From the IMG/VR virus record IMGVR_UViG_3300025879_000014: a stretch of 64,000 nucleotides of DNA; one strand, 5' to 3'. The notes beneath the pieces were generated by a model that saw only the letters and a program-made list of their open reading frames with translations, had not been told where the DNA came from and did not search any database. How positions within the stretch are numbered: the first letter of the stretch is position 1; each line of letters starts with the position of its first letter. This document shows positions 26,646 to 48,609 of this stretch, one piece after another. Both the position numbers and the translations under genes were made by a program. Origin of the DNA: an uncultured virus (IMG/VR IMGVR_UViG_3300025879_000014) (Duplodnaviria > Heunggongvirae > Uroviricota > Caudoviricetes).

Positions 26646-27584
26646 TTATACCTCACTGTTTTTATAAGCATAGTTTAGGGCAGAGTTTGCTTCACCAAGT
26701 ATGGGTCGCTTCTCGTACCAATTTCCAGTTTGTAGGTCTAGTTCCCTTGCCAGCTTCTCGAGTTCAATATCCGAGATAGGATATCCGCTTCGAATAGCAT
26801 TAAAAGAAACAGAGACCATAAACTGATACATTTTATGATACCAACCTGTTTCAGTAATAGACTTATACTCATCTAGTATTCGTTTAGAAACGAAAGGGCA
26901 ATCGCGCAAACCAGTCCAAGAATACTTATCCTTATTAGGTAATTGCGATTTGCGATGAGCTATAACCTGTTGCTGAAGTTCAGGTGGCAACCTCTCCAAG
27001 AAAGATTTACTACCGCTTGGCTCGGTAAATGGGTGACGACTCATGAGTTCGGCTGGTTTGATGAACTTACCCTTATTGGTGAATATGAAGTTATCAGCGC
27101 CAGCATAACTTCCAGGGATATAGTACATACGGCTCAGGTCTTTAGTCTGTTTGTCCCCAATAGAGTCTAACTGGGTATTCAGAGCAAACCAAAAATGGCG
27201 TATCTTACCTTGCGGAACTGCTTCTTCGAGCGGAAACACTAGTCTAAACTTTGGTTTCCCTACGGTGCTGCTGGCTGTAGAATAGCAGACAAAATAGTAT
27301 TCACCGTATTTCTCGCACAGTTCCGAACGAAGGTCGCCACCGAACTCATGCTCGTCAACGTCTACTGCAGCCCAACCAGCCCAACAATCAACGTTCTTAT
27401 TCGAACGAGTAGTGTCAGGCTGGTACGTGGCTGGCGAAAACAATTGAGCATCTTTCTTACTTTTATAAGGCAAGGCAGATAGTTTATATAGTAGCTCCTC
27501 GAGTTTATCCCAGCTGTCGAAGTCCATGCGCTTATGCGTTTTGTTATCGAATATGCTTTTAAAGATTGTCAAAGAGTATATCAT
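26646..27584 (-). CDS. Archaeo-eukaryotic primase (prim-pol)-like protein
   Basis: AVDVD (DxD), YSTASS..KPKFRLVFPL, D..TKDLSRMYYIP; helical C-terminal domain. Confidence 0.7.
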   Translation of the reverse strand: MIYSLTIFKSIFDNKTHKRMDFDSWDKLEELLYKLSALPYKSKKDAQLFSPATYQPDTTRSNKNVDCWAGWAAVDVDEHEFGGDLRSELCEKYGEYYFVCYSTASSTVGKPKFRLVFPLEEAVPQGKIRHFWFALNTQLDSIGDKQTKDLSRMYYIPGSYAGADNFIFTNKGKFIKPAELMSRHPFTEPSGSKSFLERLPPELQQQVIAHRKSQLPNKDKYSWTGLRDCPFVSKRILDEYKSITETGWYHKMYQFMVSVSFNAIRSGYPISDIELEKLARELDLQTGNWYEKRPILGEANSALNYAYKNSEV

Positions 27585-27594
27585 AATGTATCCT

Positions 27595-27623
27595 ATTATA
27601 CTATAGAATCGCTTCTAAGTAAA
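27595..27623 (-). promoter_or_regulatory. Sigma70-type phage promoter
   Basis: TTTACT-N17-TATAAT. Confidence 0.8.
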
Positions 27624-27968
27624 GTCTTTTCTTAGAAATTCTTCTAAGTTCATAGCCTTATCGTCAACGTAGTATGTCGAAGAATAAGGTTTACCGAAGA
27701 TAAGTTGGTCATATGGTACAGAGTGTTTATGTAACCAACGCTCTGTCAACTCACCAACATCATCAAGTATCATATCTATATCCCCCTTATGAGTGACCAT
27801 TCGACGAGCCGAGCTTATGATTATGTGATAACCATTTTCTTTCAATTCTCTCATCTTTCGAATGATACTAGAGTTGGGAGCAGCTTCGTAATACTTACTC
27901 ACCGAATCCTTACAATCATGATTAGGGAAACAGATTGTATCATCTAAATCAAATACTATACTTTTCAA
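27615..27968 (-). CDS. HAD phosphatase (EcbF/BcbF-like)
   Basis: VFDLDDTI, SSARRM, FGKPY, YVDDKA; TTG start at 27968 inferred. Confidence 0.8.
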   Translation of the reverse strand: MKSIVFDLDDTICFPNHDCKDSVSKYYEAAPNSSIIRKMRELKENGYHIIISSARRMVTHKGDIDMILDDVGELTERWLHKHSVPYDQLIFGKPYSSTYYVDDKAMNLEEFLRKDFT

Positions 27969-29454
27969 TGTTATCGCCCACGTAGTCAATAAAACGTTCT
28001 TGTCTTCCAGAATCGTCATAGTGTAAAGGAATACAAGTAGCGATCAATAATAAACCGCCACCCAAGATTAGGTCAACTGGCAAACCGTACTCACGGAGTT
28101 TACGAACAAAGATATCTTTAACGTCCTGATTATGAGGAACATTAGAAACCATTGCGTTGTAGCCATGATACAAGTCGTGCGCTAGTTTACACCAGTCATA
28201 TAGGTTGTCACCATATATACCTTCGTGTTCACCGTATCCACCTCGAGGGTCAATTAACCTAATCTGGTCAGTTTGCTGATTGTACAGAATATTGCCAAAA
28301 TGTAAATCGCCATGCATACCAGAAGTAGGACGGCTGTGACGATGACATTCGACAGCAATAGCTATTATACTATCTTTTGTAGAAGAAGTAAAGTAGTTTT
28401 TCTCATCAATTCTACTAACAGTTTTATCGAACCACATAGCTCTAGAAAGTTTAGAGAACTCCCCCAAGAACTCCCTATCTTCACATTTGTCATTAAAGAA
28501 CTTAGTCTTCAATCGGAATAACTTATCAATAATGTATTCCCAAGCTGAAGCAGATAGGTTCTCATATAACATAAGGTCGGATAGTAACGTACCAGACTCA
28601 TACGACATTACAATGTCACATTCAGTATCAAATACTCTAGGGACAAACATAGATTGGTTTTGGTTCAAACATTTATACCAACCTTTCTCTCGATTAATAG
28701 TTGTTACTGATTCTGCGTCATGATAGTCCGGAGACTTACGAACTGTACCAAGCTCAGGATCATATTCCATTGTATTAAACGCACGAGACTTTAGGTTTAA
28801 TAGAGCAGCACAAGTCTTGTAATACGAAGGGAGTTCACCAATATCGTACCACTTGTTAGTCATTACCTTGTTGTAATTCCCAGCATTATAGTTCTCGAGC
28901 GCTTCTGAGATTTCATAACCAGAAGCATAGTTGAATGCCTCTTTAGCTTCTAAACCGTCATTGAAGGAATACAGACCAACAAGAGCATCAGCATTAGCTA
29001 TAGAGTTATCGGGTTTATTGAAGAAGTTACTACCGTCCCACATACACCAGTTAGAATGATCGTCAGCAGACTTAGCCAACAAGAAGTCCGTACCAAAAGG
29101 CATATCTTCTTCAAGGATAATCGCATCACCTAACCAAACAACGAGTGGTAGATCGGGGCAAGATAGTTCGTTAACACCTTTCATAATAGCATGACGTGGA
29201 CCGAGTAGGTCGCCTTGCTTTACGAACTTAATATCCGGATGTTTAACAGAACAGTAATCGCGCACATCATCAAACTGCCCGTCAACGATAACGATCTCGT
29301 TGATGTTAGCAGTCTTACGTGCCTGTTCTACGATATAGTCTAAGCATGGTTTACCGTTTACACGAACCATAATCTTAGAAGTGTTGCTTGATAAAGGGCG
29401 GAGTCGAGTAGCCGACCCTGCCGCAGGAATAACGAGATTAACCAAAGAATTCAT
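27949..29454 (-). CDS. Sugar-phosphate nucleotidyltransferase fused to an APH/choline-kinase-like domain
   Basis: N-terminal VIPAAGSATRLRPLS...K and WYDIG; C-terminal HGDLHFGN, LIDPRG, YDWCKL. Confidence 0.85.
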   Translation of the reverse strand: MNSLVNLVIPAAGSATRLRPLSSNTSKIMVRVNGKPCLDYIVEQARKTANINEIVIVDGQFDDVRDYCSVKHPDIKFVKQGDLLGPRHAIMKGVNELSCPDLPLVVWLGDAIILEEDMPFGTDFLLAKSADDHSNWCMWDGSNFFNKPDNSIANADALVGLYSFNDGLEAKEAFNYASGYEISEALENYNAGNYNKVMTNKWYDIGELPSYYKTCAALLNLKSRAFNTMEYDPELGTVRKSPDYHDAESVTTINREKGWYKCLNQNQSMFVPRVFDTECDIVMSYESGTLLSDLMLYENLSASAWEYIIDKLFRLKTKFFNDKCEDREFLGEFSKLSRAMWFDKTVSRIDEKNYFTSSTKDSIIAIAVECHRHSRPTSGMHGDLHFGNILYNQQTDQIRLIDPRGGYGEHEGIYGDNLYDWCKLAHDLYHGYNAMVSNVPHNQDVKDIFVRKLREYGLPVDLILGGGLLLIATCIPLHYDDSGRQERFIDYVGDNIEKYSI

Positions 29455-30253
29455 CTAATGTAGCTCCAGATCTATCGATAAAAGCTTTCTTCCAACTGAT
29501 AATTGCTTCTACACGAGTAGTAGAACCTTCATCAGTAGTCCAAGAAGCATTTTCTTTCACAGTCAGTTTAACAACTCCAGGGAACTCACGCTGTAACGCT
29601 CGGTAACAAGATTCTTGTAGTTCTCCATTACGAAACGTAGAGTTGCCTCCAGGTTTGCCATGAGGGTGGTTGAACGCATACTTGTATATAACAGCATTCT
29701 TCATTCCAGCCTTCAATAGTGATAGTATAGCGTAAAAATCTTCAAAAAGCTTTATATTTTTATCTTTACTCCACATACCATCAAAGCTGATGTCATTGTC
29801 ATTAAACATCTGAGTGTTAATACCATAACAAGAATATGAACGAGTAATCTCAACTAGATCTTCCTCGATACGGTTGTTACCCGCACGGTCTGAGATACCA
29901 ACCCAAGCATAGTTATCGAGTTCTTCCTCAACCATAGAAAGCATCTCGAACCACTGCTCTTCAGTCTCCATCTTCTTGAGTTTCATTTCTTCGTCACGAT
30001 ACATAAACGTACAGTTGTCGTCAATGATCATAATCTTTTCGCCATTGCCCAGATTAACCAGACGCTGGCGAACATCAGCAATACCATCAGTCATACCGAT
30101 ATCTAGAACATCAGCATCGGGATAGTTTTCTTTCAAAACATCAACTCGGTCAGAACGAGTACACAGAGTGGTTCGCGAACGAACCGACTCCGGCATATTA
30201 TCCCAACAACGTTGATTATCTTCACGCATATATGTAGGAATTAAAATTCTCAT
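29438..30253 (-). CDS. GT-A fold glycosyltransferase (TET-associated type)
   Basis: ILIPTY.R, IMIIDDN, FEDF, KPGGNS; C-terminal TLDEFFG. Confidence 0.8.
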   Translation of the reverse strand: MRILIPTYMREDNQRCWDNMPESVRSRTTLCTRSDRVDVLKENYPDADVLDIGMTDGIADVRQRLVNLGNGEKIMIIDDNCTFMYRDEEMKLKKMETEEQWFEMLSMVEEELDNYAWVGISDRAGNNRIEEDLVEITRSYSCYGINTQMFNDNDISFDGMWSKDKNIKLFEDFYAILSLLKAGMKNAVIYKYAFNHPHGKPGGNSTFRNGELQESCYRALQREFPGVVKLTVKENASWTTDEGSTTRVEAIISWKKAFIDRSGATLDEFFG

Positions 30254-31683
30254 TAAAAGAAGTCCTCCAAACTTGCTTGTTCAACTAAGGCGTCTGGGTC
30301 ATTACGTTCAGCCATTTCCCTACCGCCATTCTCAATTAGGTAATCAAACCACTCTTGGCTATGCCACATTCCAGGAGATACCCCATTCCAACGCTCGCGC
30401 CAGTGAGGATGTTCCTTATTCAATCTACGGTCGTCAACGAACTTACGACGTAGTTGCTCATAATCCCAGTCGCCTAGATTTAACATATCTTCGCGGAAAT
30501 AGAATACAAGAGACATACGTAGTAAGTCATCTTCACCTGATTCGGGAGCATCGATAGGCGTGTTACCGTGGATAACTCTCATATTGTCGATCAGTAGCAA
30601 ATCGCCTGGACGAACATTAATCGCAGCACGAACTTCCGGAGCAACTAAGTAACCACCCTTCCAATCCTTACCTTCAGGAGAGATTACCGTCAAGTTAGAA
30701 AACCCTTCGTTCAAAGAACCAGCGTCGCGATGGCAAGCCATACGAGCATTACGGTCTTTCATAGTAGTGTTAACTGTTACGGTTGTAAAGGTAGTATCTT
30801 CACCAATTAAGAACTTCTTATCAACTTGGTCGGCACACTTCTTCTGAGCTTCATAACGAACTGGCATCAAGTCAGCCATAGTCTTATCTAACTTACGAGC
30901 AAACGGATAGCACTTCTCAAACTCAGTACGGTTATGCTCAACGTGGGAAGTTGCTCGACCATACGGAATACGAGGATAACGACCATAGAAACCAGTAATA
31001 CCAGACCACAACGGCGTAGCATAAGAAGTATCAGAGATCATTGTTTCGTGTAACTTCTTGGCATAGGAGCGAGCATCATTAACATCAAGCTCGGCAAGAC
31101 GTTTCTCGGCAACTGAGAAGAAGTTGTCATAGACCCCAAACTCTGATTCAATCTTAGAGCGAAGCCATACCTCACCACGTGTTTCGTACTGGGCGGTTTT
31201 ATGTTTCTCGATTATCTCTTCGATCGGATCGCCACCCATAACACTTTGAGGCGAACCGTCCATATAGTAATCAAGAAGGTCACGTTGGAAAGGAGTAACC
31301 CAATCACGACCACCAGACTTCTCGGCACGTGGACCCGCAGCCATACCACGGTTATTAGATTCAGCTGCTGCCGAGAATAACCCTTCGAACGCACCGTTCT
31401 GTTCGTCTTGAGTGAACACACCCTTTCTAAACTTGAAAGCAACACGATCTTCGCCGATACAACCAATACATTCATTATTACAATTGGTTGCTTCTGTCAT
31501 ATCACACTCAGGCGGTAAGTAGAAGTCCGCATCGCTATCGATTAAGATATCGTACGAGCCTTCATCGGCATACTTACCTAATAACTCATCTTGGTCGACT
31601 ACGAACATAGCAACGTAGACGTCTTGCCCTTCAGAGCCAACGTACTTTTGCCACTCGTATCCACCAAACTTAACTAATTCCAT
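30253..31683 (-). CDS. TET/JBP-family 2-oxoglutarate-Fe(II) dioxygenase
   Basis: FTTVTVN, ACHRDAG (HxD), GDLLL, IHGNTP (distal His), RMSLVFYFRE (2OG-binding Arg); C-terminal SLEDFF. Confidence 0.85.
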   Translation of the reverse strand: MELVKFGGYEWQKYVGSEGQDVYVAMFVVDQDELLGKYADEGSYDILIDSDADFYLPPECDMTEATNCNNECIGCIGEDRVAFKFRKGVFTQDEQNGAFEGLFSAAAESNNRGMAAGPRAEKSGGRDWVTPFQRDLLDYYMDGSPQSVMGGDPIEEIIEKHKTAQYETRGEVWLRSKIESEFGVYDNFFSVAEKRLAELDVNDARSYAKKLHETMISDTSYATPLWSGITGFYGRYPRIPYGRATSHVEHNRTEFEKCYPFARKLDKTMADLMPVRYEAQKKCADQVDKKFLIGEDTTFTTVTVNTTMKDRNARMACHRDAGSLNEGFSNLTVISPEGKDWKGGYLVAPEVRAAINVRPGDLLLIDNMRVIHGNTPIDAPESGEDDLLRMSLVFYFREDMLNLGDWDYEQLRRKFVDDRRLNKEHPHWRERWNGVSPGMWHSQEWFDYLIENGGREMAERNDPDALVEQASLEDFF

Positions 31684-31708
31684 AATGTTCTCCTGTTTAA
31701 CAGCGCCT

Positions 31709-31737
31709 ATTATACTATACCTATCTGAGAAAGTAAA
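31709..31737 (-). promoter_or_regulatory. Sigma70-type phage promoter heading the DNA-modification operon
   Basis: TTTACT-N17-TATAAT; RBS AGGAG before 31683. Confidence 0.85.
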
Positions 31738-32117
31738 GTCTTTTTTAAGTCCGGTTCTGAATAGTTCGGACCTTTTAATATCTTGCCGTCTTCGCGGTAG
31801 ATAGGTTTGCCGTCTTCACCCAGCTTTGACATATTAGAACGTTGTACTTCACGGAAGCAAGCATCGGCGTCGATACCAAAGGCAGCAGCTGCTCCATACG
31901 TGACATATAGAATATCAGTAATGGCATCGGCAACTTCAACAATATCTTTCTCAGCCATAGCTTCTATCAATTCATCAAGTTCTTCTTTGATAAGGTCAAT
32001 ACGAAGTGCTTGTACTTCAAGAGAAGGAAACTCGGGAGAAGTCTTAACCTCTTGTCCGAATGCGTTCATAAAATTCTTTACTTTCTGGTAGTTTGTTACG
32101 TGTAGGTCTACACTCAT
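31710..32117 (-). CDS. MazG-like all-alpha NTP pyrophosphohydrolase (possible dUTPase)
   Basis: FGQ, LIKEELDE, EVADAITDILYV, EVQRSNMSK, GKILKG. Confidence 0.85.
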   Translation of the reverse strand: MSVDLHVTNYQKVKNFMNAFGQEVKTSPEFPSLEVQALRIDLIKEELDELIEAMAEKDIVEVADAITDILYVTYGAAAAFGIDADACFREVQRSNMSKLGEDGKPIYREDGKILKGPNYSEPDLKKTLLSQIGIV

Positions 32118-34633
32118 GCGAAAAAATCCTCAAGGCTTACTGTTTCTTCTTCGTTCCAACCGATCGCAGCCAATATCGGACGAACAACGTCTAGGAATGC
32201 CTTCTCAAACTGAAGGTCATAGTTAATGTATTTATGGAGCTTCAACTCCTCCGGTAAGTACTCCGGAAACGCAATCACATTCTCCTTGATAGGATTTGGT
32301 GTTTTAAGATAGCAGAACTTAATCTTCTCGCCATCTTGTATCGTCTGATACCGTTTAAGGTTGTTATCAGATAATGCTTTGTTATATAGGATAGCACCAC
32401 GAACGTGAATAGGACACCCTTTCTTATACACGAGAGTCTTATCTTCCCAAGCAGTAACCTTAGAAACCCCACGAGGAAACGCAACCTTTTCGGGAGGAAG
32501 GTTGATAAAGTGTTCCTTGAATTGGGCGATAGCAGTTTGGGTATCTTTCTCAGTGCCAGATACGATTACTTTAAACAACGCCTTCAACGCATCACGGCAA
32601 GACATAGGAGTCGACGACTTAACAGCTTCGATACCCATTATCTTCAGTTTTGGTTTAGAATACTGAACACCTTCGTTGTTGTGTACGTTTAGTATGTATC
32701 GTTTCTTAGCAGTCCAGATACCAGCATCGGCAATAGCTTCACGAGCCATGGCCATCTTATTCTCATATGCGTCCATATACTCAGCAAGCTGTTCATAAGA
32801 ACGTTCTAGCATAGGTTCAAACTGGTCGGAACATACTTTGTCAATCAACTTAACGACATCTTCCTTTGGTTTCTTATCCCAGTTTAAGTGCTTAACCAAC
32901 GGCTCGAAGTCAATGTAGACCGAGTCAGTATCGATAGCGATAACGTGATCTTTACCAGTTACACCTAGTATCTTATTGATGAAATTGTTTACAGCTTTCT
33001 CTGCCCAACGAATAGATAACTGACCAGATAGAGTAATACCTTCAGCAATACGAAGGTCATAGTATCTGAACCAACGATTACCGATAGCACCATAAAGTGA
33101 GTTCATCATGATCTTAAGAGCCATCTGCTCGTTGTCAAGTGTAGTGATAGACTTTTCTAATCGGTAGATTTCTTTCTTATCGTTCTTATCGGCATGCTGT
33201 AGTTCTTGCTCGTATTTGAGCATTTCCTTCTTAACAACCTTACGACCAGCATACATATCTTCAACGAGTTTAGGTATAACTCCACGAACGTCTTTGCGGT
33301 AATGCGAACCGTTAGCAGCCATTGTACAATCAGGTCGAACTGAATCAGGCTTTTGTAGGTTAAGTACATTATCTACAGTAACGCCAGTGGTGGATTCTTG
33401 TACGATAGTCTCAGGACTCATATTATACTGCATAATCAAATGCGGATATAGTGAGTTTAAATCAAAAGAAACTACCCAAGAATGACGACCAACCCGAGGA
33501 GCTTTAACATAACCACCTGGGAAGTCTGCCTTGAAGTTATCTTGTTTAGGTGGCGGAGCTACCTTATCTTCATGTAATACACGATAGATGTAAGTATCCC
33601 AGATACCAGTTGTACCAAATGCTTCAGAATAGTTTACCCCAGCTTTATAAGCCAAAGTCATACAAAGGGTAATCAACCCCATCTTATCTTCCATACGGTC
33701 AACCAACTCAACGTCTTTGATGTTATAGTCGATAAACTTCTGGTGATCTTCTTTGTAAAGAGTATAAAGGTTGCCGTGTTCTTCGTACGATAACTTCTTC
33801 TCGCCGAGTACAACGTGAGCGATATGGTCTAGTTTATACGACTCTTCTGCAGAGTAAGTAAACTTCTTATACAGGTCAAGGTAATCTAGGAGTTCAATAC
33901 CAACCAACTCGAACTTCTGCTCAACTCGGTTCATCAACTTGACTTCTCGCTCGTTGATTTTACCCCAAGGAGATAGTTTCTTAACCATATCATTACCGAT
34001 AATACGAGACATACGGTTTACAAGGTAAGGAATATCAAATAGAGTAGAGTTCCAGCCAGTAACAACGTCGGGCATATTCTTAGGTAAAGACCAATGGTTT
34101 ACGAAGTTCATTAGGAGATGAGCTTCGGACTCGCACTTGTAATAGATTACTTCATAGTCTTTCATCAACGCTTTACTAACATCAAAGTCATCAAGACCCC
34201 AAACATAGTAAACGTTATCAATGTTATTCTTTAAAGCAATAGATATTACAGGATAGTTGGCTTCGCGTGGCTGAGGGAATCCCTCATCTGAAGCAACCTC
34301 GATATCGATAGTTGTTACGTTGATGTTATCTCGGTTAAACTCGATATTTCCTGGGTGTTGTTGCTGGACGTACTGGGCGATGTAGTTAGTATTGCCATAG
34401 ATTTTAAAGTTAGACGTATCGCCATACTGCGCCATGAAGTCTTTTGCTTCGCGCATAGAATCAAGTTCAACAGGAGCAAGCTTAGTACCGTCTAAGGATT
34501 TCCAATCGCCGTTCTCCGATGGGACGAATAGCGTTGGGGCGAAATTGACTCGGTCTTGGAACTTGTGTCCGTTTTTGTAGCCACGAACAAGTAAGCTATT
34601 ACCGAACCTAGACACATTAGTGTAGAATTTCAA
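32114..34633 (-). CDS. gp43: Family B DNA polymerase
   Basis: DIEV exonuclease motif, FDLNSLYP, KIMMNSLYG, IDTDS, KKRY; TTG start; C-terminal SLEDFFA. Confidence 0.97.
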   Translation of the reverse strand: MKFYTNVSRFGNSLLVRGYKNGHKFQDRVNFAPTLFVPSENGDWKSLDGTKLAPVELDSMREAKDFMAQYGDTSNFKIYGNTNYIAQYVQQQHPGNIEFNRDNINVTTIDIEVASDEGFPQPREANYPVISIALKNNIDNVYYVWGLDDFDVSKALMKDYEVIYYKCESEAHLLMNFVNHWSLPKNMPDVVTGWNSTLFDIPYLVNRMSRIIGNDMVKKLSPWGKINEREVKLMNRVEQKFELVGIELLDYLDLYKKFTYSAEESYKLDHIAHVVLGEKKLSYEEHGNLYTLYKEDHQKFIDYNIKDVELVDRMEDKMGLITLCMTLAYKAGVNYSEAFGTTGIWDTYIYRVLHEDKVAPPPKQDNFKADFPGGYVKAPRVGRHSWVVSFDLNSLYPHLIMQYNMSPETIVQESTTGVTVDNVLNLQKPDSVRPDCTMAANGSHYRKDVRGVIPKLVEDMYAGRKVVKKEMLKYEQELQHADKNDKKEIYRLEKSITTLDNEQMALKIMMNSLYGAIGNRWFRYYDLRIAEGITLSGQLSIRWAEKAVNNFINKILGVTGKDHVIAIDTDSVYIDFEPLVKHLNWDKKPKEDVVKLIDKVCSDQFEPMLERSYEQLAEYMDAYENKMAMAREAIADAGIWTAKKRYILNVHNNEGVQYSKPKLKIMGIEAVKSSTPMSCRDALKALFKVIVSGTEKDTQTAIAQFKEHFINLPPEKVAFPRGVSKVTAWEDKTLVYKKGCPIHVRGAILYNKALSDNNLKRYQTIQDGEKIKFCYLKTPNPIKENVIAFPEYLPEELKLHKYINYDLQFEKAFLDVVRPILAAIGWNEEETVSLEDFFA

Positions 34634-34666
34634 AAGTGTTCAACCTCGTTTCATTATCAATAGGGT

Positions 34667-34695
34667 ATTATACTATATCTAGAGCAGAAAGTAAA
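34667..34695 (-). promoter_or_regulatory. Sigma70-type phage promoter (gp43)
   Basis: GTTTACT-N17-TATAAT. Confidence 0.85.
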
Positions 34696-34715
34696 CCCCT
34701 CGAGGAGAGGGGTTT
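34693..34715 (-). terminator. Terminator-like hairpin abutting the -35 box
   Basis: AAACCCCTC-5nt-GAGGGGTTT then ACTTT. Confidence 0.65.
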
Positions 34716-34735
34716 GTATTTATTTTTGAAAGAAG

Positions 34736-34876
34736 TTATTCTTCCTCATCATTTTGGTTAAGGGATTCGGTCAACTCTTCTTGATGCTCGCACATCTCTT
34801 TATATGAATTGTATTCACCCTCCTCGCAACCGCATTGACTAAGGCTGTCATTTTCTTCCTTGGTATATGGCCACAT
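34736..34876 (-). CDS. 46-aa acidic peptide (MWPYTKEE...), not in the ORF track
   Basis: Translated by hand; RBS AAGGA. Confidence 0.5.
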   Translation of the reverse strand: MWPYTKEENDSLSQCGCEEGEYNSYKEMCEHQEELTESLNQNDEEE

Positions 34877-34879
34877 AGA

Positions 34880-35101
34880 TTAATCCTTCTTAGAAACGAA
34901 CGAATACATTTCCTTTGCTTTGTCCATAAGCTCATCCATAGTATATGGAGTCATTGCTTCCCTTAGTTCTTCGGCGTTCTTCTGGCCAACTTCGAATAGC
35001 TTGGTTGTAATCTCAAGGTTCATTTGAGTTTGTTTATCAAGGTAATCTTTAGCCATAGATAGGATTTCTGTGCGGATTTCAAATGGGTTTTTGTTTGACA
35101 T
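34880..35101 (-). CDS. Conserved hypothetical protein
   Basis: NPFEIRTEILSMAKD...AKEMYSFV. Confidence 0.7.
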   Translation of the reverse strand: MSNKNPFEIRTEILSMAKDYLDKQTQMNLEITTKLFEVGQKNAEELREAMTPYTMDELMDKAKEMYSFVSKKD

Positions 35102-35333: not shown

Positions 35334-35816
35334 TTAGTTTCCTGTTTCTCGTAGAAACTCTGGGTCTTTTGTTTGATAGTCATTAGTAATTCCTCGACTG
35401 TTTGAATTGATATCAATTTGACGAGGACGCTTTTCTTCTGGGACGATTACCTTCAACTCTATGGCAAGGATTCCGTCTGTTAGATTAGCTCCATTGACTT
35501 CCACGTACTCCGACAATCGGAAGGTGCGGTTAAATTTCTTAGCAGATATTCCTTTATGAATATACTCCCGACCCCTATTCTTATGTTCACCGCGAACGTA
35601 TAGAGAGCGATCCTTCACTTCTATTTGTAACTCATTCTCAGCAAAACCAGCAACTGCTAATTCGACGTGATAAGTCGTATCGTCGAACTTGACGATATTG
35701 TGAGGAGGGTAGTTATCGTTTGCGTGCCTTGCGACTCGGTCTAGCTCATCGAATAGATGATCGAATCCAACAAAAGCTGAACGTGGGAATAGTGATTTGA
35801 CATTTACGTTAGTCAT
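35334..35816 (-). CDS. hsp20: Small heat-shock protein (IbpA-like)
   Basis: NYPPHNI, ELAVAGF, HKGIS...F.RTF, DGILAIEL. Confidence 0.93.
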   Translation of the reverse strand: MTNVNVKSLFPRSAFVGFDHLFDELDRVARHANDNYPPHNIVKFDDTTYHVELAVAGFAENELQIEVKDRSLYVRGEHKNRGREYIHKGISAKKFNRTFRLSEYVEVNGANLTDGILAIELKVIVPEEKRPRQIDINSNSRGITNDYQTKDPEFLRETGN

Positions 35817-36216: not shown

Positions 36217-36633
36217 TTATTTTACATTTCCGATATTATATTTAGGGCAAAGTTCCCATTCACACTTTTCTCTATGAGGGATAACCTTAACCTGACGCAG
36301 AGGAGCAACGTTATTAACCTGCTCTTTATCAAGCACGGTTATTAATCCCCAATCCGACAACAATGTCGCGATTGTGTTTCTACGTTGAATATCGTTCTCT
36401 AGCAGGTTAGAAGGTTTGCCGTCAAGTAAGAACAATTCTTTAAAGTGAACGATGAAGTATCGTCCTTGCTTATGTAGAATATGACAAGACTGAAATAGCT
36501 TGTTTTCTTTCTTAGACGCTACACCCATACGAGTTAGTGTTTCTCTAACTTTCAGGAAATCGTCAGGTTCGTTGAGTAGCACTTCAAGCATTACCGCTGG
36601 CGTCCACTCAATTTGTTGGTTTTCTTGTTCCAC
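36217..36633 (-). CDS. regA: Translational repressor RegA
   Basis: DDFLKVRETLTRMG, QSCHILHKQGRYFIVHFKELF. Confidence 0.95.
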   Translation of the reverse strand: MEQENQQIEWTPAVMLEVLLNEPDDFLKVRETLTRMGVASKKENKLFQSCHILHKQGRYFIVHFKELFLLDGKPSNLLENDIQRRNTIATLLSDWGLITVLDKEQVNNVAPLRQVKVIPHREKCEWELCPKYNIGNVK

Positions 36634-37006
36634 CTTTATACACCCTTTTCTTCAATTCAATAAGTTGGTCATTAGTTAGTAATTTAAGAACATCACGAGC
36701 TTTTTCGTCGCTATATCCATAATATTCTTTTACCAATTCGATATCCTGGTTATCATCGGCTTTCGCCCATTTTCCCCAGAGTTTCTTCTTTCTAATACTA
36801 TTTATAAGATATTGAAATTGAAGAGAACCGTCCAAGTGGTGGTTTATGTTCATCTCATTTGCGTGTAAAATGGTTTCTAAGTGTTGACTCAATCCACGGT
36901 TTACCATGAAGGCAACTTTCTTGTAGTTCTTATCGCCGTTAGGGTCTTCGCTTAATAGGTCTTTCTTAGATTGAGTCACCGCAGTTATATAATCAAATGG
37001 ACTCAT
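36608..37006 (-). CDS. gp62: Clamp loader small subunit
   Basis: FMVNRGLS, ANEMN, VKEYYGYS..KA; synteny with regA. Confidence 0.88.
   Translation of the reverse strand: MSPFDYITAVTQSKKDLLSEDPNGDKNYKKVAFMVNRGLSQHLETILHANEMNINHHLDGSLQFQYLINSIRKKKLWGKWAKADDNQDIELVKEYYGYSDEKARDVLKLLTNDQLIELKKRVYKGGTRKPTN
36799..36806 (-). promoter_or_regulatory. Possible late promoter inside gp62, upstream of regA
   Basis: TATAAATA. Confidence 0.45.
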
Positions 37007-37007
37007 A

Positions 37008-37601
37008 TTAACCTCGTAGAGCTTGAGCCAAGGACTGCATACGCATAACATCCATTACGATATCATGACGGCAATCGTGGGCAATGAACTTTTCTTCCAA
37101 GCCTTCAGGAATAAAGGTGTTCTTTATCTTATGACCAAAAGCCATACCGTCGATAGTAGAACGTGTATCCCTAACAATCCAGAAAGGGAATGGGTCTTTC
37201 TCACCAACTGCTTCTAGTAGTTCGCGAAGCAAGATAGGATCAAAAGTATTACCACGAGTATATGCTCTCTTAAGAGTTGTAAAGTTAATGTTATCAAACA
37301 AGAACTGGTTGAACTCTGTAATAGACTTATCTTCATCAGAAGGTTTAAGTACAGCACGAGCTTCGGCTGGTTGCTTTGACCACCAAGCAAGGGTATCCGG
37401 ATCAATCTTACGGTTGTAGATTTCTACCTGCTCTTCAACATCAAATTTGATATATCGAGTTTCACGTAGAAGTTCTTCGTAGTCGTACGGATTATCAGAA
37501 TACAAACGAGTTTCGTCGTAAGATAGTAATGCCAAGTTAATAGCAGCACCTCTGATAGGATCCTGACTTAATGTTTCAAAGTCGTAAATGATAGTATCCA
37601 T
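37008..37601 (-). CDS. dexA: DEDD 3'-5' exonuclease (DexA-like)
   Basis: IYDFETL, TLAWW, RGNTFD, RDTRS, HDCRHD. Confidence 0.82.
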   Translation of the reverse strand: MDTIIYDFETLSQDPIRGAAINLALLSYDETRLYSDNPYDYEELLRETRYIKFDVEEQVEIYNRKIDPDTLAWWSKQPAEARAVLKPSDEDKSITEFNQFLFDNINFTTLKRAYTRGNTFDPILLRELLEAVGEKDPFPFWIVRDTRSTIDGMAFGHKIKNTFIPEGLEEKFIAHDCRHDIVMDVMRMQSLAQALRG

Positions 37602-38542
37602 TACACCCACTCCGCATCGATCATAATTTCGGTTAAACAAGCAACTGTATTTAGTTCGTGGTCAGAAACAAACGCATCTTGATACTGGTAACGACCAAGG
37701 ATTAATACAGTAGCAGCTACAGACTCAGCTGACATAAAGTCCTTACACTGGTCAAATATCTTACGAAATATAACCGATGAATCTAGGTCAGAATTGTTAG
37801 CAACCCAAGAACGCATACCTTTGAAGTTCTTTGCTTTCAGATAACCCATAAGAGTTTTGAAGTTATCGTCAGCTAGGTTTACAAGGATACCCGCATCAAT
37901 CTTACCTGATAAGGAATAGCGCTGAATCTCGTTAAGTACTCGACGGAAATCCGGAAAGTGCTTTTGTACCAATTCAACAACAGCTTTCTTATCATACTCA
38001 ATAGATTCAGTCTCAAGGATATGACAAACACGCTTGAAGATCTCACCGGCAATAGCAGGCTTTTCTTCTTTAGGGATACCGAACTCATATACTGAACAAC
38101 GAGAGTGTAGCGGTTCAATGATCTTATTCTTGAAGTTACAAGTAAGAATGAAACGGCAGTTGTTAGAGAACTCTTCGATAAAGGCACGAAGTGCTGGCTG
38201 AGTAGATTGGGCATTTAGATAATCAGCCTCATCCAGGATAACTACCTTATAACCACCTTGTAAAGATACAGAAGAAGCAAACTGTCTGATCTTATTACGA
38301 AGTGTATCGATGTTGCCATCTTCTGAAGCATTGACAATGATATAGTCAAGTTCAAGTTCATTACATAAGGCTTTGGCAACTGTAGTTTTACCTACACCAG
38401 CCGTTCCTGAGAATATCATATTAGGGAGTTCTTCACCCTTAACAATCTCAGAGAAGGTTTTGTTTAACGATTTCGGGAGAATCGTTTCAGAAATAGTTCT
38501 AGGGCGGTACTTTTCAACGAATAAGAATTCTTGGTTTGACAT
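37601..38542 (-). CDS. gp44: Clamp loader ATPase subunit
   Basis: EKYRP, GTAGVGKTT, DEAD, SRC. Confidence 0.95.
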   Translation of the reverse strand: MSNQEFLFVEKYRPRTISETILPKSLNKTFSEIVKGEELPNMIFSGTAGVGKTTVAKALCNELELDYIIVNASEDGNIDTLRNKIRQFASSVSLQGGYKVVILDEADYLNAQSTQPALRAFIEEFSNNCRFILTCNFKNKIIEPLHSRCSVYEFGIPKEEKPAIAGEIFKRVCHILETESIEYDKKAVVELVQKHFPDFRRVLNEIQRYSLSGKIDAGILVNLADDNFKTLMGYLKAKNFKGMRSWVANNSDLDSSVIFRKIFDQCKDFMSAESVAATVLILGRYQYQDAFVSDHELNTVACLTEIMIDAEWV

Positions 38543-38821: not shown

Positions 38822-39088
38822 TTAAATAATAATACCCGAAGTTGCTTGGCGATAAGCTTTCTGCACTTCCATATTTGTGTCTACTACAAACACAAACTGA
38901 CCGAAAGTCACTTCGCGAGGGTCAGCTTCACCAGTTACAGCGATACCAGCTGCAAACCCCATACCACTTTCGTTGGTGATTAACATACGAGGATCTTCTA
39001 ATGTAATAGTCCCATCAGTAGAAGATTTGTATTTACCTACGTACTCGCCAGAGATAGCGACGACTGTTACGATATCATTTAATTCCAT
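38822..39088 (-). CDS. Conserved hypothetical protein (Sm-like beta fold suspected)
   Basis: SGEYVGK...LEDP...YRQATSGII. Confidence 0.65.
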   Translation of the reverse strand: MELNDIVTVVAISGEYVGKYKSSTDGTITLEDPRMLITNESGMGFAAGIAVTGEADPREVTFGQFVFVVDTNMEVQKAYRQATSGIII

Positions 39089-39609
39089 TATTGTGCTCCT
39101 TTTAAGTATTCTATTACATATTCTGGCGAAGAGATTTCGTACGGATCCGCAGGGCAGTTATCCATAATACCATCTTCTTCAAAGTAGTTTACGACTTCTA
39201 GATTATCAACAACTACAGCATATCTCCATGAACGTTTACCAAACCCAAGATTAGATTTGTCGACCAATACGCCCATACCTGCAGCGAATTCGCCATTACC
39301 GTCAGGGAGCATACGAACATTCTTGATACCTTGACTTTGCGCCCACTGGTACATAGTAAAAGAATCATTTACCGAAGTACAATAGATTTCGTCAATACCT
39401 AATTCTAGGAATTGGTTGTACATAGCTTCATAACCTGGAAGCTGAGAGTTAGAACAAGTAGGAGTAAATGCTCCTGGTAATCCGAAGATTAAAACTTTCT
39501 TGCCCGCAAATAGGTCTTTAGAGGTATTGTATACCCACTTAAAAGGGTTATCGCCTTCGATTGTTTCATCACGCTCGCGCATGTAAAATGTAATATCTGG
39601 TAGTAACAT
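39088..39609 (-). CDS. Peroxiredoxin (Prx5 type)
   Basis: LPGAFTPTCS, SVND, DGNGEF, RSWRYA. Confidence 0.92.
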   Translation of the reverse strand: MLLPDITFYMRERDETIEGDNPFKWVYNTSKDLFAGKKVLIFGLPGAFTPTCSNSQLPGYEAMYNQFLELGIDEIYCTSVNDSFTMYQWAQSQGIKNVRMLPDGNGEFAAGMGVLVDKSNLGFGKRSWRYAVVVDNLEVVNYFEEDGIMDNCPADPYEISSPEYVIEYLKGAQ

Positions 39610-39618
39610 AATATATCC

Positions 39619-39879
39619 TTACTCATTAACAATTTTGTTTAGAAGGTCTTCAAACTGATCCACCTTCTCAACTCGGTTTGGCCAATAGATATAATCCTTT
39701 TCGGGATTCTTCTTTAGGTTAGATAACAGTGGTAATATCGTGTTATATAACTTATTGACTTTCTCTTCCAACTCAGTTGCCGTCGAAGACGTTTCGTTGG
39801 CAACTTGTTGGGCTTGCTGTACTGCTTCTAATTCGGTCTCGTCTACAGCGGTAAAGCCGAAGTCGAAGATATCGCTCAC
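39619..39879 (-). CDS. Conserved hypothetical protein
   Basis: FDFGFTAVDE...PLL.NLKKNPEKDYIYWPNR. Confidence 0.7.
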   Translation of the reverse strand: MSDIFDFGFTAVDETELEAVQQAQQVANETSSTATELEEKVNKLYNTILPLLSNLKKNPEKDYIYWPNRVEKVDQFEDLLNKIVNE

Positions 39880-40606: not shown

Positions 40607-41293
40607 TTACGCTCCGAAAGTTGATGTCTTTTCAAGGGCAACCCAATATGTCGCTTTCGCATCGTCGTTTTTGAACTCAGAGATGAGCTTAGACGATACG
40701 GAAATATCGAAGTTTCCTGGCAAGAACTTAAAGTTATTGATATTGAATACTAGTTTGAATGCTTCGTCAGGACGAGCAGCAATCGTACCAAGTTTCATTT
40801 TAAAGGTGTTGGCAGTAGATACTTTAACATCAGTTACTTCAACAGTTGCTTCAGTAGAACCTTCTTCACCAATAATCACCACATCCGTACAAGCAATAGC
40901 AGTAGCTGCTTTACGAATAGCTGCCATCTGAGAGTCGGTCAAAGTAAACTTCACTACACTAGGTGGCATAGTAATGTCTTTAGACGGACTGGTCAAGATA
41001 GAGGCATCCGAGAAGAAATACTCAAAAGACTGCGAACCGTCATCATTAGAAATGGTGACAGAGCTTTCGTTAAAAGTAAACTCCGGATCATCAATCATAC
41101 CTGCAACGGTTAAGAAAGAGTTTAAGTCATAGATACCAAATTCTTGAGGGAACACGTCCGGAACTTCAGCAGAAGAAAGGACTGTCTTACTCTCGGCAAT
41201 GGTTTTAATAGTAGAACCTTCACGGACTACTAAGTTTGGATTAATGCTTGCGAAGTTGCGAAGCACGTTAAAGGTTTCATTTGATAGTTTCAT
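40607..41293 (-). CDS. gp45: Sliding clamp
   Basis: MKLSNET...NFASIN, FGIYDLNSFL, YWVALE. Confidence 0.93.
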   Translation of the reverse strand: MKLSNETFNVLRNFASINPNLVVREGSTIKTIAESKTVLSSAEVPDVFPQEFGIYDLNSFLTVAGMIDDPEFTFNESSVTISNDDGSQSFEYFFSDASILTSPSKDITMPPSVVKFTLTDSQMAAIRKAATAIACTDVVIIGEEGSTEATVEVTDVKVSTANTFKMKLGTIAARPDEAFKLVFNINNFKFLPGNFDISVSSKLISEFKNDDAKATYWVALEKTSTFGA

Positions 41294-41319: not shown

Positions 41320-41348
41320 ATTATACTATACTACATCACTAAAGTAAA
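41320..41348 (-). promoter_or_regulatory. Sigma70-type phage promoter (gp45)
   Basis: TTTACT-N17-TATAAT plus ACTTGTATTGAA leader. Confidence 0.85.
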
Positions 41349-41713: not shown

Positions 41714-42886
41714 TTAGAAAATGTCATTTATAATATCGTCAACTGAAGTGGTACTTTCTTGACCAGCTTCGGGGACAGGGTTCCCAACGCTCGCATCAAC
41801 CTTTGAGTATAGGTCTTTGAAAGCTTCTTTTGTATCTTCATCAAAACGGCTGATACAAAGGTCAATCGCTTTCTCTTTATCTTTAAAGATAGCGAAAGTT
41901 TGAACAATGTGGCATAGGCGACGAGTAGAAATAACTTCATCAACACCACCGTCAACGTAGGTCTTGCGAATAATATCCGACCAAGTGGTCAGGTTAACAG
42001 CAAAGTCTTCGTCCTTGCGACCATACTTATCCATATGGTTCAGGACGATTTTCTTTTCAATCGCAGTTGAAGGATAAGGCTGTTCAACCGTAATCGAGAA
42101 ACGCTCAAGGAACGCTTCGTCAATAATAGTAGCAGATACGAACTTACCATCATCAGAACCTTGTCCCTTTGTATTCGCAGTAGCAATAATATTGAACCCG
42201 TCTTTAGGCTTAACAACTTCGCCAGTCTTTTTAATCAGAACTGGTTTACCTTCTAGAACGCCTTGTAAAGCCATTAAGCGATTAGAAGAACGATCGATCT
42301 CATCGATCAGTAGGATAGCACCTGCTTCCATTGCTTTGATAACCGGACCTTTAACAAAAACAGTTTCGCCATTAATTAGGCGGAATCCACCAATCAAATC
42401 GTCTTCGTCAGTTTCGGGAGTTACCTGAACACGAACATACTCGCGATTCAGTTTAGCGCATGCCTGTTCAACCATCATTGTTTTACCATTACCAGATAGA
42501 CCAGTAATAAAGGTCGGGTAGAACATACGAGATTCAATAATCATTCGAAGGTCTTTAAAGTTGCCCCAAGAAACATAAGTAGGATCAGTTTCTGGGATAT
42601 AGATTTCATCGTTCGAGATAGATTGAACAGAAGAAGTCATAGCAGGGGCAGGAGCTGTTTCGAAAGCGCGACCACCTTCGATTCGGCGGAAAGGTGCCAA
42701 CTTAGATTCTAGGTTCCAGACGCCACGAGAGATACGATCAGTCGTTTTATCAAGCATCTTATCGTATATTGATCCATTGGTATACCCAAGAGCTTTGGCT
42801 ACAATGTTCATCTCAGCATTACGGAAAGTGGTCTGGTCAGGGTAACGAGCAGCAAGTTCTTTTAGAAACGGAGTAAAGTTATTCAT
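41714..42886 (-). CDS. MoxR/CobS-like AAA+ ATPase
   Basis: GLSGNGKT, LLIDEID, ATANTKGQG, AFLERF, ISTRRL. Confidence 0.9.
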   Translation of the reverse strand: MNNFTPFLKELAARYPDQTTFRNAEMNIVAKALGYTNGSIYDKMLDKTTDRISRGVWNLESKLAPFRRIEGGRAFETAPAPAMTSSVQSISNDEIYIPETDPTYVSWGNFKDLRMIIESRMFYPTFITGLSGNGKTMMVEQACAKLNREYVRVQVTPETDEDDLIGGFRLINGETVFVKGPVIKAMEAGAILLIDEIDRSSNRLMALQGVLEGKPVLIKKTGEVVKPKDGFNIIATANTKGQGSDDGKFVSATIIDEAFLERFSITVEQPYPSTAIEKKIVLNHMDKYGRKDEDFAVNLTTWSDIIRKTYVDGGVDEVISTRRLCHIVQTFAIFKDKEKAIDLCISRFDEDTKEAFKDLYSKVDASVGNPVPEAGQESTTSVDDIINDIF

Positions 42887-42919
42887 AATGTATATTCTCT
42901 CAATCAATTCAATACAGGT

Positions 42920-46910: not shown

Positions 46911-47971
46911 CAAACAATCTCATAATTTTGAGCTTCAACATATAGCTCTCGGATTACAGTCTTAATACGGTCTTTGTCAAGGTCAGTATCAACTGCTTCA
47001 ACATAAGTATCTAGCAACTCGGTAGTTTCTTCGAGCGATACTTTATCATCGTCAATACTTTCACCAGAGAACTCCTCAAACGTTTCGGCAATCTTCATCT
47101 CGTGAGTTTCGACGTCTTGTAACTTATCTATAAAGCGATCGAATGTAAACGGATCCTTCTTGTTAGTCACCAATACTTTTATAAACTTGTTAGAGTACTG
47201 GTCAACGTCGGGGTTAGTGTAGTCCGTTGTTTCGTCGTCGTAATAGATCTTCTCAAACATAGTTATAGGGTTTCTTACTGGGGTAATCTCGCGAGTATCA
47301 GTATCGATAACGTGGAAGAACTTATTGTCATCACAGTCAGCCCAAGTAAACTCCATTTGCGAACCAAGATACATAATGTTCCCTTGAGTCGATTTAGTAT
47401 GGAAGTGACCAGAGAATACAGTTTCAAAACGTTTAAAGGTAGAAGGTTGCATTCCGTGGGGGTTTGGGATACCCTTATGCATTTCAAAACCTTCTATCTC
47501 AAAGTGTCCACCAAGCATAGATGCGTCACAGGTATTGATAAAGTTAATCGACTCGGCATAGTTCTCAGAGTTAATCCAAGGTACAACACCAACCTTTAGC
47601 CCATCATAATCTAATACCTTCGGCTCCATTATGATGTTAACATTAGAGGTATAGTAACCCAACAACTCTTTCAATGAGCATAGCTCGTTTGTGTTCTTAA
47701 AGAATACGTCGTGGTTCCCAGGAATAATATCCATAACCATACCATTATCTTTAAGGTGCTGAAGGAAGTGTTTCCGGTTAGCGTTCAAAGCTTTGAAGTT
47801 TACGAACTTACGGTGCTCATAGTAATCACCTAGATGAAGTACAGTTTTGATACCGTTCTCAATACAATACGGGAAGAAAACTTCTTCGTAGAATTTACGT
47901 TGATATTCAATGAATACATCAGAGCTATTACGAGCGCCACAATGCGTGTCGTTTAAGATAGCAACTTTCAT
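46910..47971 (-). CDS. gp47: Mre11/SbcD-like recombination endonuclease subunit
   Basis: DTHCG, LGD, GNHD, SGHFH. Confidence 0.95.
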   Translation of the reverse strand: MKVAILNDTHCGARNSSDVFIEYQRKFYEEVFFPYCIENGIKTVLHLGDYYEHRKFVNFKALNANRKHFLQHLKDNGMVMDIIPGNHDVFFKNTNELCSLKELLGYYTSNVNIIMEPKVLDYDGLKVGVVPWINSENYAESINFINTCDASMLGGHFEIEGFEMHKGIPNPHGMQPSTFKRFETVFSGHFHTKSTQGNIMYLGSQMEFTWADCDDNKFFHVIDTDTREITPVRNPITMFEKIYYDDETTDYTNPDVDQYSNKFIKVLVTNKKDPFTFDRFIDKLQDVETHEMKIAETFEEFSGESIDDDKVSLEETTELLDTYVEAVDTDLDKDRIKTVIRELYVEAQNYEIV

Positions 47972-48537
47972 TATTCGTCATCTCCCATAAAGTTCTCTAG
48001 GGATTTCTTTTCCTTTTCCTTTTTCTCAAAGTCCTTTATGATCTTATCAGAATCCTTAACTCGAGTAATACGCTCGCGAAGTTCATCAACAAAGTTCTGT
48101 TCGATAAAACCTTCACCCACGCCATCAGAAGTCATGAACTCTTCGAATCCAGCTTCGTCAATATACTTCATCTTCACGTCAAACTGCTTCTTTTCTTTCT
48201 GTATACGACGAAGAAACGCATAGAAGCAAATCTGAGTAAAGTAAGAGAAAGCGTTAGGAGTACCTGTACGAGTCTTAGTAGTTATGTCATAGTTCTTAAC
48301 TGCCTTTAAGCAATTCTCAACTGCGTCCATTACCATTTCTTCTCGGTACGTGTATCTAATGAAGTTAGGTCGGTGGGATAGTCCTTCGGCAATACGTAGG
48401 AAGCACCGAGCAATATACTCTGGTACAATAGGAGTGTCTTTACCTTCTGCATGCGCAGAATTAACAGAGTTAACGTACTCTACAACAGACTGAGAGAACT
48501 TCTTGTTATCGACATAGTGGGGTTTATTTTGCGACAT
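47971..48537 (-). CDS. gp55: Late-transcription sigma factor
   Basis: HYVDNK, IAEGLSHRPNF..Y, NAFSYFTQI; C-terminal SLENFM. Confidence 0.93.
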   Translation of the reverse strand: MSQNKPHYVDNKKFSQSVVEYVNSVNSAHAEGKDTPIVPEYIARCFLRIAEGLSHRPNFIRYTYREEMVMDAVENCLKAVKNYDITTKTRTGTPNAFSYFTQICFYAFLRRIQKEKKQFDVKMKYIDEAGFEEFMTSDGVGEGFIEQNFVDELRERITRVKDSDKIIKDFEKKEKEKKSLENFMGDDE

Positions 48538-48580: not shown

Positions 48581-48609
48581 ATTATACTATAAAAGAGAGG
48601 ATAAGTAAA
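48581..48609 (-). promoter_or_regulatory. Sigma70-type phage promoter (gp55)
   Basis: TTTACT-N17-TATAAT. Confidence 0.85.

Follow-up and report, generated by a model that had tools for sequence, protein, structure and literature searches.

Clamp-Binding-Type C-Terminal Tails on a Tet_JBP Dioxygenase and a Glycosyltransferase of a T4-like Phage: Possible Sliding-Clamp-Coupled DNA Hypermodification

Why should two enzymes predicted to modify the bases of phage DNA end in the same kind of peptide as the phage's DNA polymerase? This question is raised by a 64,000-nucleotide stretch of IMG/VR record IMGVR_UViG_3300025879_000014 (the window), which belongs to a marine T4-like myovirus and whose genes lie almost entirely on the minus strand. 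A Tet_JBP dioxygenase and a TET-associated glycosyltransferase (TAGT, hereafter also GT) encoded there carry a C-terminal tail of the type found on the DNA polymerase gp43 and the late sigma factor gp55. From sequence comparisons, we consider it likely that the last 7–8 residues of the dioxygenase and the GT form a short linear motif that would dock both enzymes on the phage's own sliding clamp, gp45, like the C-termini of gp43 and gp55. In our best reading, this clamp tether probably serves post-replicative DNA hypermodification.

The original prediction read the four C-termini as VSLEDFFA (gp43), ASLEDFF (dioxygenase), ATLDEFFG (GT), and KSLENFMGDDE (gp55), and retranslation of the genes agreed with these readings. 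We scanned the 212 six-frame open reading frames (ORFs) of at least 50 amino acids (aa) in the window for the strict motif [ST]L[DEN][DEN]F[FLMYW]. The motif was found four times, in gp43, gp55, the dioxygenase, and the GT, and all four copies were at the extreme C-terminus, followed by one, four, zero, and one residues, respectively; no internal copy was observed in any window ORF of at least 80 aa. The SLEDFF sequence is identical in the dioxygenase and gp43, and the GT version is TLDEFF. Given the composition of 92 window ORFs that do not overlap (20,262 residues), 0.0018 C-terminal matches would be expected by chance, and resampling gave at least one match in only 43 of 20,000 trials. Moreover, the codons for the shared tail residues differ among the four genes, which indicates that the four tails did not arise by duplication of a single DNA segment. 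The resemblance might nevertheless be functionless, either a coincidence or an inherited C-terminus, for instance through recombination between neighboring genes, and the adjacency of the genes and the shortness of the motif would suit such an origin. We regard this explanation as extremely improbable in view of the low chance expectation and the differing codons. In addition, the tail is retained in homologues with 39–88% identity while the linker ahead of it varies, is found on unrelated folds elsewhere, and has been lost jointly from both enzymes in clamp-less phages, as described below.

The gp43 tail lies, as had been proposed, at the position homologous to the clamp-binding end of T4 gp43. 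In the HMMER alignment, the segment eetvsledff of the window gp43 was aligned to eekasldflf, which comprises residues 888–897 of the 898-residue T4 gp43 chain (9e5y). The C-terminal motifs of gp43, gp55, and gp33 have been described as interchangeable sliding-clamp-binding epitopes, and that of gp55 as conserved across T4-related phages (review PMC2988020). T4 DNA ligase inserts the LDFLF peptide of an internal loop into a hydrophobic pocket of gp45, and the affinity of this peptide is approximately 10.7 µM (PMC6212786); the RB69 polymerase peptide likewise occupies a hydrophobic pocket (1B8H). Like the gp43, gp55, and gp33 epitopes of T4 and RB69, the tails observed here are hydrophobic-acidic, extremely C-terminal, and preceded by a variable linker, and the phage also possesses gp45, gp44, and gp62. 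The tails of gp43 and gp55 are assigned by homology as predicted clamp peptides, and those of the dioxygenase and the GT are assigned as putative clamp peptides through their motif identity with the phage's own gp43. Unlike gp43, gp55, gp33, and ligase in T4, the additional clients predicted here are base-modifying enzymes and not replication or transcription proteins.

Both enzymes were assigned to their families with scores above the thresholds, and in both the tail is modelled as an appendix to the fold. The dioxygenase matched PF12851 with 59.1 bits (cutoff, 34.9), and H318, D320, H372, and R389, which correspond to the HxD...H iron triad and the 2-oxoglutarate (2OG) arginine, were invariant in an alignment of 25 sequences. 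The best Foldseek match was CcTet (8jkk, E 6.5e-07), followed by NgTET1, TET2, and CMD1, with TM-scores of just 0.3–0.4; the model was of moderate quality, with a predicted local distance difference test (pLDDT) value of 71 that fell to 51 in the final residues. The GT matched PF20691 with 32.8 bits (cutoff, 27.5) and PHROG 842 with E 4e-44. Its AlphaFold2 model (pLDDT 92.4) was confident to approximately residue 260; over residues 261–271 the values dropped from more than 90, first to 58 and finally to 48, and residues 266–270 formed a short helix. The best Foldseek matches of the GT were the GT-A enzymes TarS, RmlT, and TarP, and D78 and D79, an acidic DxD-type pair, were invariant. The GT is not a member of PF11440, the T4 α-glucosyltransferase (α-GT) family; Pfam assigned it to TAGT only, and its fold is GT-A and not GT-B. 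In both models the tail is an appendix outside the fold. The linker columns were variable and of differing lengths in both the GT and the dioxygenase alignments, and L472, F475, and F476 were at least 90% conserved in the 25-sequence dioxygenase alignment.

The original prediction called for a check on tail conservation among homologues, and this was found. The search with the dioxygenase gave 2509 homologues at E ≤ 1e-5. Among the best 120, 50 carried the strict motif and the other 70 carried a close xLxxFF variant (e.g., SLEGFF or SLESFF) in all but 2 cases, which were the shorter sequences P0100 and P0093, the latter ending in STLENWFCD. In the 80 IMG/VR loci found with the dioxygenase alignment, the oxygenase ended in LxxF[FL] in every case (80/80), and gp43, where it was encoded on the same locus, carried the same tail type. 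When the oxygenase homologues were clustered at 50% identity, 26 of the 150 best cluster representatives were tailed, and the proportions were 13/26 at 420–520 aa and 7/80 at 270–419 aa. These skewed counts indicate that the tail belongs to the clade around this dioxygenase and not to the superfamily. In regards to the GT, 25 of 84 homologues carried the strict motif and most of the remainder carried a variant. A group of short GT homologues (256–265 aa) terminates just past a conserved WKKAY sequence, and the TAGT homologues of three non-T4-like phages were untailed.

We counted tailed proteins by family among the distinct sequences pooled from two locus sets, one oxygenase-based and one GT-based. 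The tail was present in 79/90 oxygenases, 25/34 GTs, 17/18 gp43 proteins, and 16/33 gp55 proteins. No tailed member was found for gp45 (0/25), gp44 (0/18), gp62 (0/15), RegA (0/15), UvsX (0/12), gp41 (0/15), the primase-like protein (0/10), or DsbA (0/7). The statement that the sugar-pathway enzymes and the MazG-like protein lack the tail also held: the MazG-like protein ends in SQIGIV and the NTP-transferase/kinase fusion ends in IEKYSI, and their homologues were untailed (0/7 and 0/22, respectively). Among the ORFs of at least 80 aa, 167/1396 were tailed on the gene strand and 0/774 on the other strand, whose ORFs are mostly non-coding. In many relatives (L016, L021–L034, L063, and L139), gp55 ends in a basic sequence such as KKKKKIVHEE or EKAKMKKVVK with no clamp motif, and the oxygenase of the same locus is tailed.

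Two further candidates in the window were examined, of which the first was rejected. The end of the HAD phosphatase, MNLEEFLRKDFT, is loosely similar to the tail. Its LEEFL sequence lies 5 residues before the end, and the homologue in clamp-less S-CBWM1 retains MDWREFLV, so that this end is most likely a fold element and not a tail. The HAD family gave 1 tailed sequence in 27; this lone match is in L132, a ParB-type locus (see below) in a record that is approximately 50% complete and in which no gp45 was seen. An 86-aa ORF (39619–39879) adjoins the DsbA-like gene, which is the place of gene 33 in T4, and was considered as a tailed gp33; it ends in FEDLLNKIVNE, which does not match the motif, and has no family match. 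Separately, a CobS-like AAA protein of 397 aa (41714–42907), which adjoins a CobT-like protein of 695 aa, ends in SVDDIINDIF, a hydrophobic-acidic sequence of another pattern.

The distribution of the tail followed that of gp45. We compared the ends of homologues from phages with and without the clamp, a comparison that had been set as a check in the original prediction. C48C1, DLP6, and Cr30 possess gp43 and gp45, and their oxygenases are tailed; S-CBWM1 and HTVC112P possess neither protein, and their oxygenases are untailed. The oxygenase of P12024L, a 36-kb phage whose genome was not searched for gp45, is also untailed. The GT-based loci contained 32 distinct pairs of GT and oxygenase, in 25 of which both enzymes were tailed and in 7 of which neither was tailed by the search pattern. 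Six of the 7 untailed pairs consisted of a short oxygenase (305–326 aa) and a GT of 260–264 aa. The ORF upstream of the oxygenase encoded a ParB_N protein in all 4 untailed pairs tested. A hidden Markov model (HMM) of these ParB proteins gave 10 matches, all of which were in untailed loci, including that of HTVC112P, and none in tailed loci. The untailed ParB–oxygenase–TAGT cassettes were found at L104, L124, L125, L127–L132, and L005; one ParB-type record, a 54-kb genome that is complete and has terminal repeats, lacks gp45, and in three others, which are fragments, no gp45 was seen. No ParB was detected by the HMM at L007, L008, L097, and L098, which are copies of the window region, or in the PHROG annotation of the window. 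Within the loci examined, ParB and the clamp tail are mutually exclusive. The seventh pair (L134) is from a 145-kb record that encodes gp45. Its GT (L134:10001–10825) ends in VESVSLF and its gp43 (L134:13125–15692) ends in EEQVSLF, which we assign from these sequences as a variant tail common to the polymerase and the GT.

These distributions also bear on the possibility that the tailed proteins have a common binding partner that is not the clamp. This could be a different component of the replisome; it could also be a chaperone or protease to which a hydrophobic-acidic C-terminus would serve as a tag for degradation or timing. C-terminal tags are a known means of addressing proteases, and the phage encodes a ClpP-like protease (4019–4651, PHROG 1827). 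We consider a non-clamp partner quite unlikely, since the same motif is on gp43 at the clamp-binding position of T4 and on gp55, the tail is missing exactly where gp45 is missing, and a degron would not be expected only on DNA-acting enzymes.

Docking on gp45 would also be consistent with the range of enzymes that carry the tail. In the first locus set, 40 tailed ORFs fell outside all of the reference families, and 22 of them were taken as representatives for Pfam analysis. They included GT-B enzymes of the Glycos_transf_1 family (447–450 aa) immediately downstream of the oxygenase (3/3 tested), further TAGTs (3/3), GNAT acetyltransferases of approximately 213 aa (7 matches), amino-acid:DNA transferases of PF18724 (2 matches), an HNH endonuclease ending in STLEEFLA (L054:8887–9375), a 182-aa P-loop protein ending in NDLSSFF (L029:12911–13459), one methyltransferase-like protein, and several proteins without a family. 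The complete genomes of phages C48C1 and Stenotrophomonas phage DLP6 were then scanned for the strict tail in ORFs of at least 60 aa. Exactly three ORFs of C48C1 were tailed, namely gp43, the oxygenase, and a D12-class N6-adenine DNA methyltransferase; this Dam-like methylase is encoded directly downstream of gp43 (L147:14480–15364; 33480–34364 of the record) and ends in STLDAFFG. In DLP6, the strict tail was found on gp43, the oxygenase, the TAGT, and one ORF of 61 aa that is unlikely to be a real gene. Matches to a relaxed motif in these two genomes were discounted; apart from a primase fragment and a baseplate hub protein ending in GIDDFF, they were mostly short ORFs on the opposite strand. 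The occurrence of the same end on unrelated folds suggests that the tail was acquired convergently by separate enzymes whose common feature is a DNA substrate. The original prediction was concerned with two tailed DNA-acting enzymes; both are tailed, but this scope was too narrow, because many unrelated DNA-modifying enzymes of related phages are tailed as well.

Alternatively, the tails may bind gp45 in a role that is chiefly regulatory, in which competition with gp43 and gp55 for the clamp would link late transcription and replication to completed DNA modification or hold them back until then. gp55 uses the same class of site, the clamp trimer offers three sites only (as in the T4 ligase peptide structure, PMC6212786), and the tether in T4 adds little to modification levels (PMC13216743), all of which would accommodate such a role. 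We judge it unlikely as the main function: no fewer than six unrelated catalytic families carry the tail, with nothing in common but a DNA substrate, a distribution that fits enzyme delivery better, and gp55 is untailed in many relatives whose oxygenase stays tailed.

If the tails deliver the enzymes to the clamp, the modification reaction might proceed as follows. The gp44/62 complex would load gp45 clamps onto the replicating phage DNA, and the clamp would carry the dioxygenase along the duplex, where it would convert, most likely, thymine to 5-hydroxymethyluracil (5hmU). The same or another clamp would carry the GT-A glycosyltransferase, which would add a sugar to the new hydroxyl group, and the donor sugar would be supplied by the adjoining untailed kinase/nucleotidyltransferase and phosphatase. 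Such a tether would change a three-dimensional search into one-dimensional scanning and limit the enzymes to clamp-loaded DNA, that is, DNA under replication. The enzymes might act directly behind the fork, which would shrink the interval in which new DNA is exposed to restriction, or on clamps that remain on the DNA. Thymine is probably the substrate of the dioxygenase, giving 5hmU and then glycosyl-5hmU, because no C5-methyltransferase is present in the PHROG annotation of the 64-kb window and such dioxygenases are treated as T-dioxygenases by the rule of thumb in PMC13229309. The kinase/nucleotidyltransferase and the phosphatase probably activate a sugar by a salvage-type route.

Several observations weigh against this interpretation. 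The choice of thymine over 5-methylcytosine depends solely on the missing C5-methyltransferase in a 64-kb window of a larger genome. The tail motif here is LxxFF and is not identical to the sldflf end of T4 gp43, and the match in Cr30 is weak, as its oxygenase ends in GATLF and its gp43 in ADLSSLFD. At L134, the oxygenase is untailed while the GT is tailed. The TAGT of T6 is untailed although T6 has gp45, which indicates that the tail is not obligatory for the enzyme family. Furthermore, promoter swapping in T4 showed that the ratio of α- to β-glucosylation depends mostly on expression strength rather than on clamp binding (PMC13216743), so that a tether of this kind may have only a modest functional effect.

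The closest precedent is the T4 α-GT, which co-purifies with and binds gp45 (PMC13216743, confirming Sommer et al. 2004; also cited in PMC6024577). Like the GT of the present phage, it is a phage DNA glycosyltransferase tied to the sliding clamp, and this tie has been taken to couple glycosylation to replication. In regards to the proposal of clamp-coupled modification, all of the comparative predictions (conservation, confinement to phages with gp45, lack of the tail on the sugar-donor enzymes, and the T4 position) were borne out, but a DNA glycosyltransferase bound to the clamp is not in itself a new idea. The T4 α-GT is a GT-B enzyme (PF11440) acting on DNA in which 5-hydroxymethylcytosine is incorporated before polymerization, whereas the present enzyme is a GT-A TAGT with a tailed dioxygenase upstream.

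Phage T-dioxygenases (5mYOX) have been reported to include ParB-dependent and ParB-independent members, and a DNA-bound accessory protein has been proposed to keep 5mYOX on DNA (PMC13229309). The enzymes of that study are likewise Tet_JBP proteins encoded by a GT gene with no adjoining C5-methyltransferase and are predicted to form 5hmU after replication. Unlike the ParB-dependent subclass, the dioxygenase of the window has no ParB neighbor; in the parts of PMC13229309 consulted, sliding clamps are raised for ParB/KorB alone and not for gp45. Trypanosome JBP1/2 and the base-J glucosyltransferase are also mentioned in PMC13229309. In that system, a TET/JBP hydroxylase is likewise followed by a GT acting on thymine in DNA, although it is eukaryotic, is only distantly homologous, and is not known to have a sliding-clamp peptide.

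In eukaryotes, a PCNA-interacting peptide of DNMT1 recruits a DNA-modifying enzyme to newly replicated DNA. Its closest phage analogue would be the tailed Dam-like methylase of C48C1, whereas the clamp, the position of the motif, and the chemistry of DNMT1 differ. Clamp-binding peptides, the binding of T4 α-GT to gp45, phage TET/5mYOX enzymes with their GTs, and the ParB-dependent class are thus already known. For hypermodification enzymes, TET/JBP and TAGT included, no description of a gp45-type tail was found in the full-text literature searched, which contained few subscription journals and no supplements; this agrees with the earlier remark that the tail had not been described for a TET/GT pair.

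We see an even chance that gp45 is a general tool-belt for post-replicative hypermodification in T4-like phages, in which each type of enzyme gained the peptide independently and clamp-less phages use a ParB-type protein. If so, phage 5mYOX would be divided into clamp-dependent, ParB-dependent, and free-standing classes, and a need for the clamp could account for the lack of activity of some phage TET/5mYOX clades expressed on their own in Escherichia coli (PMC8256090, PMC13229309), which matters for their use as tools. The known clients of the phage sliding clamp would be widened from replication and transcription proteins to a class of DNA-masking enzymes, and the tail would be a sequence mark that separates DNA-acting phage transferases from those acting on small molecules or cell-wall precursors. 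The mutual exclusivity of ParB and the clamp tail connects two accessory systems not previously discussed together. The arrangement would further suggest a route to complete post-replicative modification that is limited to phage DNA.

The features of the window that bear on the tail are summarized in Table 1. The modification genes belong to a compact run (34633 to 27615) in the order gp43, MazG/PRA-PH-like protein, Tet_JBP dioxygenase, TAGT, NTP-transferase/APH-kinase fusion, and HAD phosphatase. The gp43 gene runs into the MazG-like gene at ATGA, where stop and start codons overlap, and the dioxygenase gene likewise runs into the GT gene at TAATG. The start codon of the NTP-transferase/kinase gene falls within the tail codons of the GT (29438–29464), with an overlap of 17 nucleotides, and two reading frames therefore run across the tail-coding DNA. 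The NTP-transferase/APH-kinase fusion and the HAD phosphatase follow the GT directly, and the same trio is observed behind the GT in many related loci.

Table 1. Positions of the tailed proteins, their neighbors, and the clamp components in the window.
Feature	Position	Strand	Evidence
gp43, family B DNA polymerase, 839 aa	32114..34633	-	Pfam DNA_pol_B and exonuclease domain; T4 and RB69 gp43 structures, E 2e-127
gp43 C-terminal tail, VSLEDFFA	32117..32140	-	HMMER alignment to T4 gp43 end
MazG/PRA-PH-like pyrophosphohydrolase, untailed	31710..32117	-	Pfam PF01503, E 6.5e-23; ends SQIGIV
Promoter-like site, TTTACT-N17-TATAAT	31709..31737	-	Directly upstream of the dioxygenase gene
Tet_JBP/5mYOX 2OG-Fe(II) DNA-base dioxygenase, 476 aa	30253..31683	-	Pfam PF12851
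Dioxygenase C-terminal tail, ASLEDFF	30256..30276	-	Translation
TET-associated glycosyltransferase (TAGT, GT-A fold), 271 aa	29438..30253	-	Pfam PF20691; PHROG 842
Glycosyltransferase C-terminal tail, ATLDEFFG	29441..29464	-	Translation
NTP-transferase and APH-type kinase fusion, 501 aa, untailed	27949..29454	-	Pfam PF00483 and PF01636
HAD-family phosphatase, no clamp tail	27615..28019	-	Pfam HAD_PNKP
gp55 late sigma factor, ends KSLENFMGDDE (tail 47974-48006)	47971..48537	-	PHROG 234, E 3e-55; translation
gp45 sliding clamp, proposed docking partner	40607..41293	-	Pfam PF09116 and PF02916; 1czd (T4) and 1b77 (RB69), E ~1e-18
gp44 clamp-loader large subunit	37601..38542	-	Pfam AAA and Gp44_lid
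gp62 clamp-loader small subunit	36608..37051	-	PHROG 225, E 1e-41

The gene set of the window comprises gp43, gp45, gp44, gp62, gp55, gp41, UvsX, UvsY, UvsW, gp46/47, RegA, and NrdAB, and T4-type head and tail genes are likewise present. Host-like auxiliary genes at 4019–4651, 5430–6119, 35334–35816, and 39088–39609 encode a ClpP-like protease, PhoH, Hsp20, and a peroxiredoxin. A megablast search with positions 27000–35000 of the window gave zero matches in phage records.

The window contains 18 copies of a promoter-like element, TTTACT-N17-TATAAT (expected, 0.02), and 17 of them are on the gene strand. Sites include 34667–34695, 41320–41348, and 48581–48609 in addition to that listed in Table 1, and the element has the same form ahead of gp43, gp45, gp55, and the dioxygenase. 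An AGGAG sequence follows the dioxygenase element just 5' of the ATG codon. This element probably represents the early or middle promoter class of this phage. The presence of the same consensus match ahead of the dioxygenase and of gp43, gp45, and gp55 suggests that the modification genes are turned on together with the replication genes. Most copies of the element are immediately upstream of early or replication genes.

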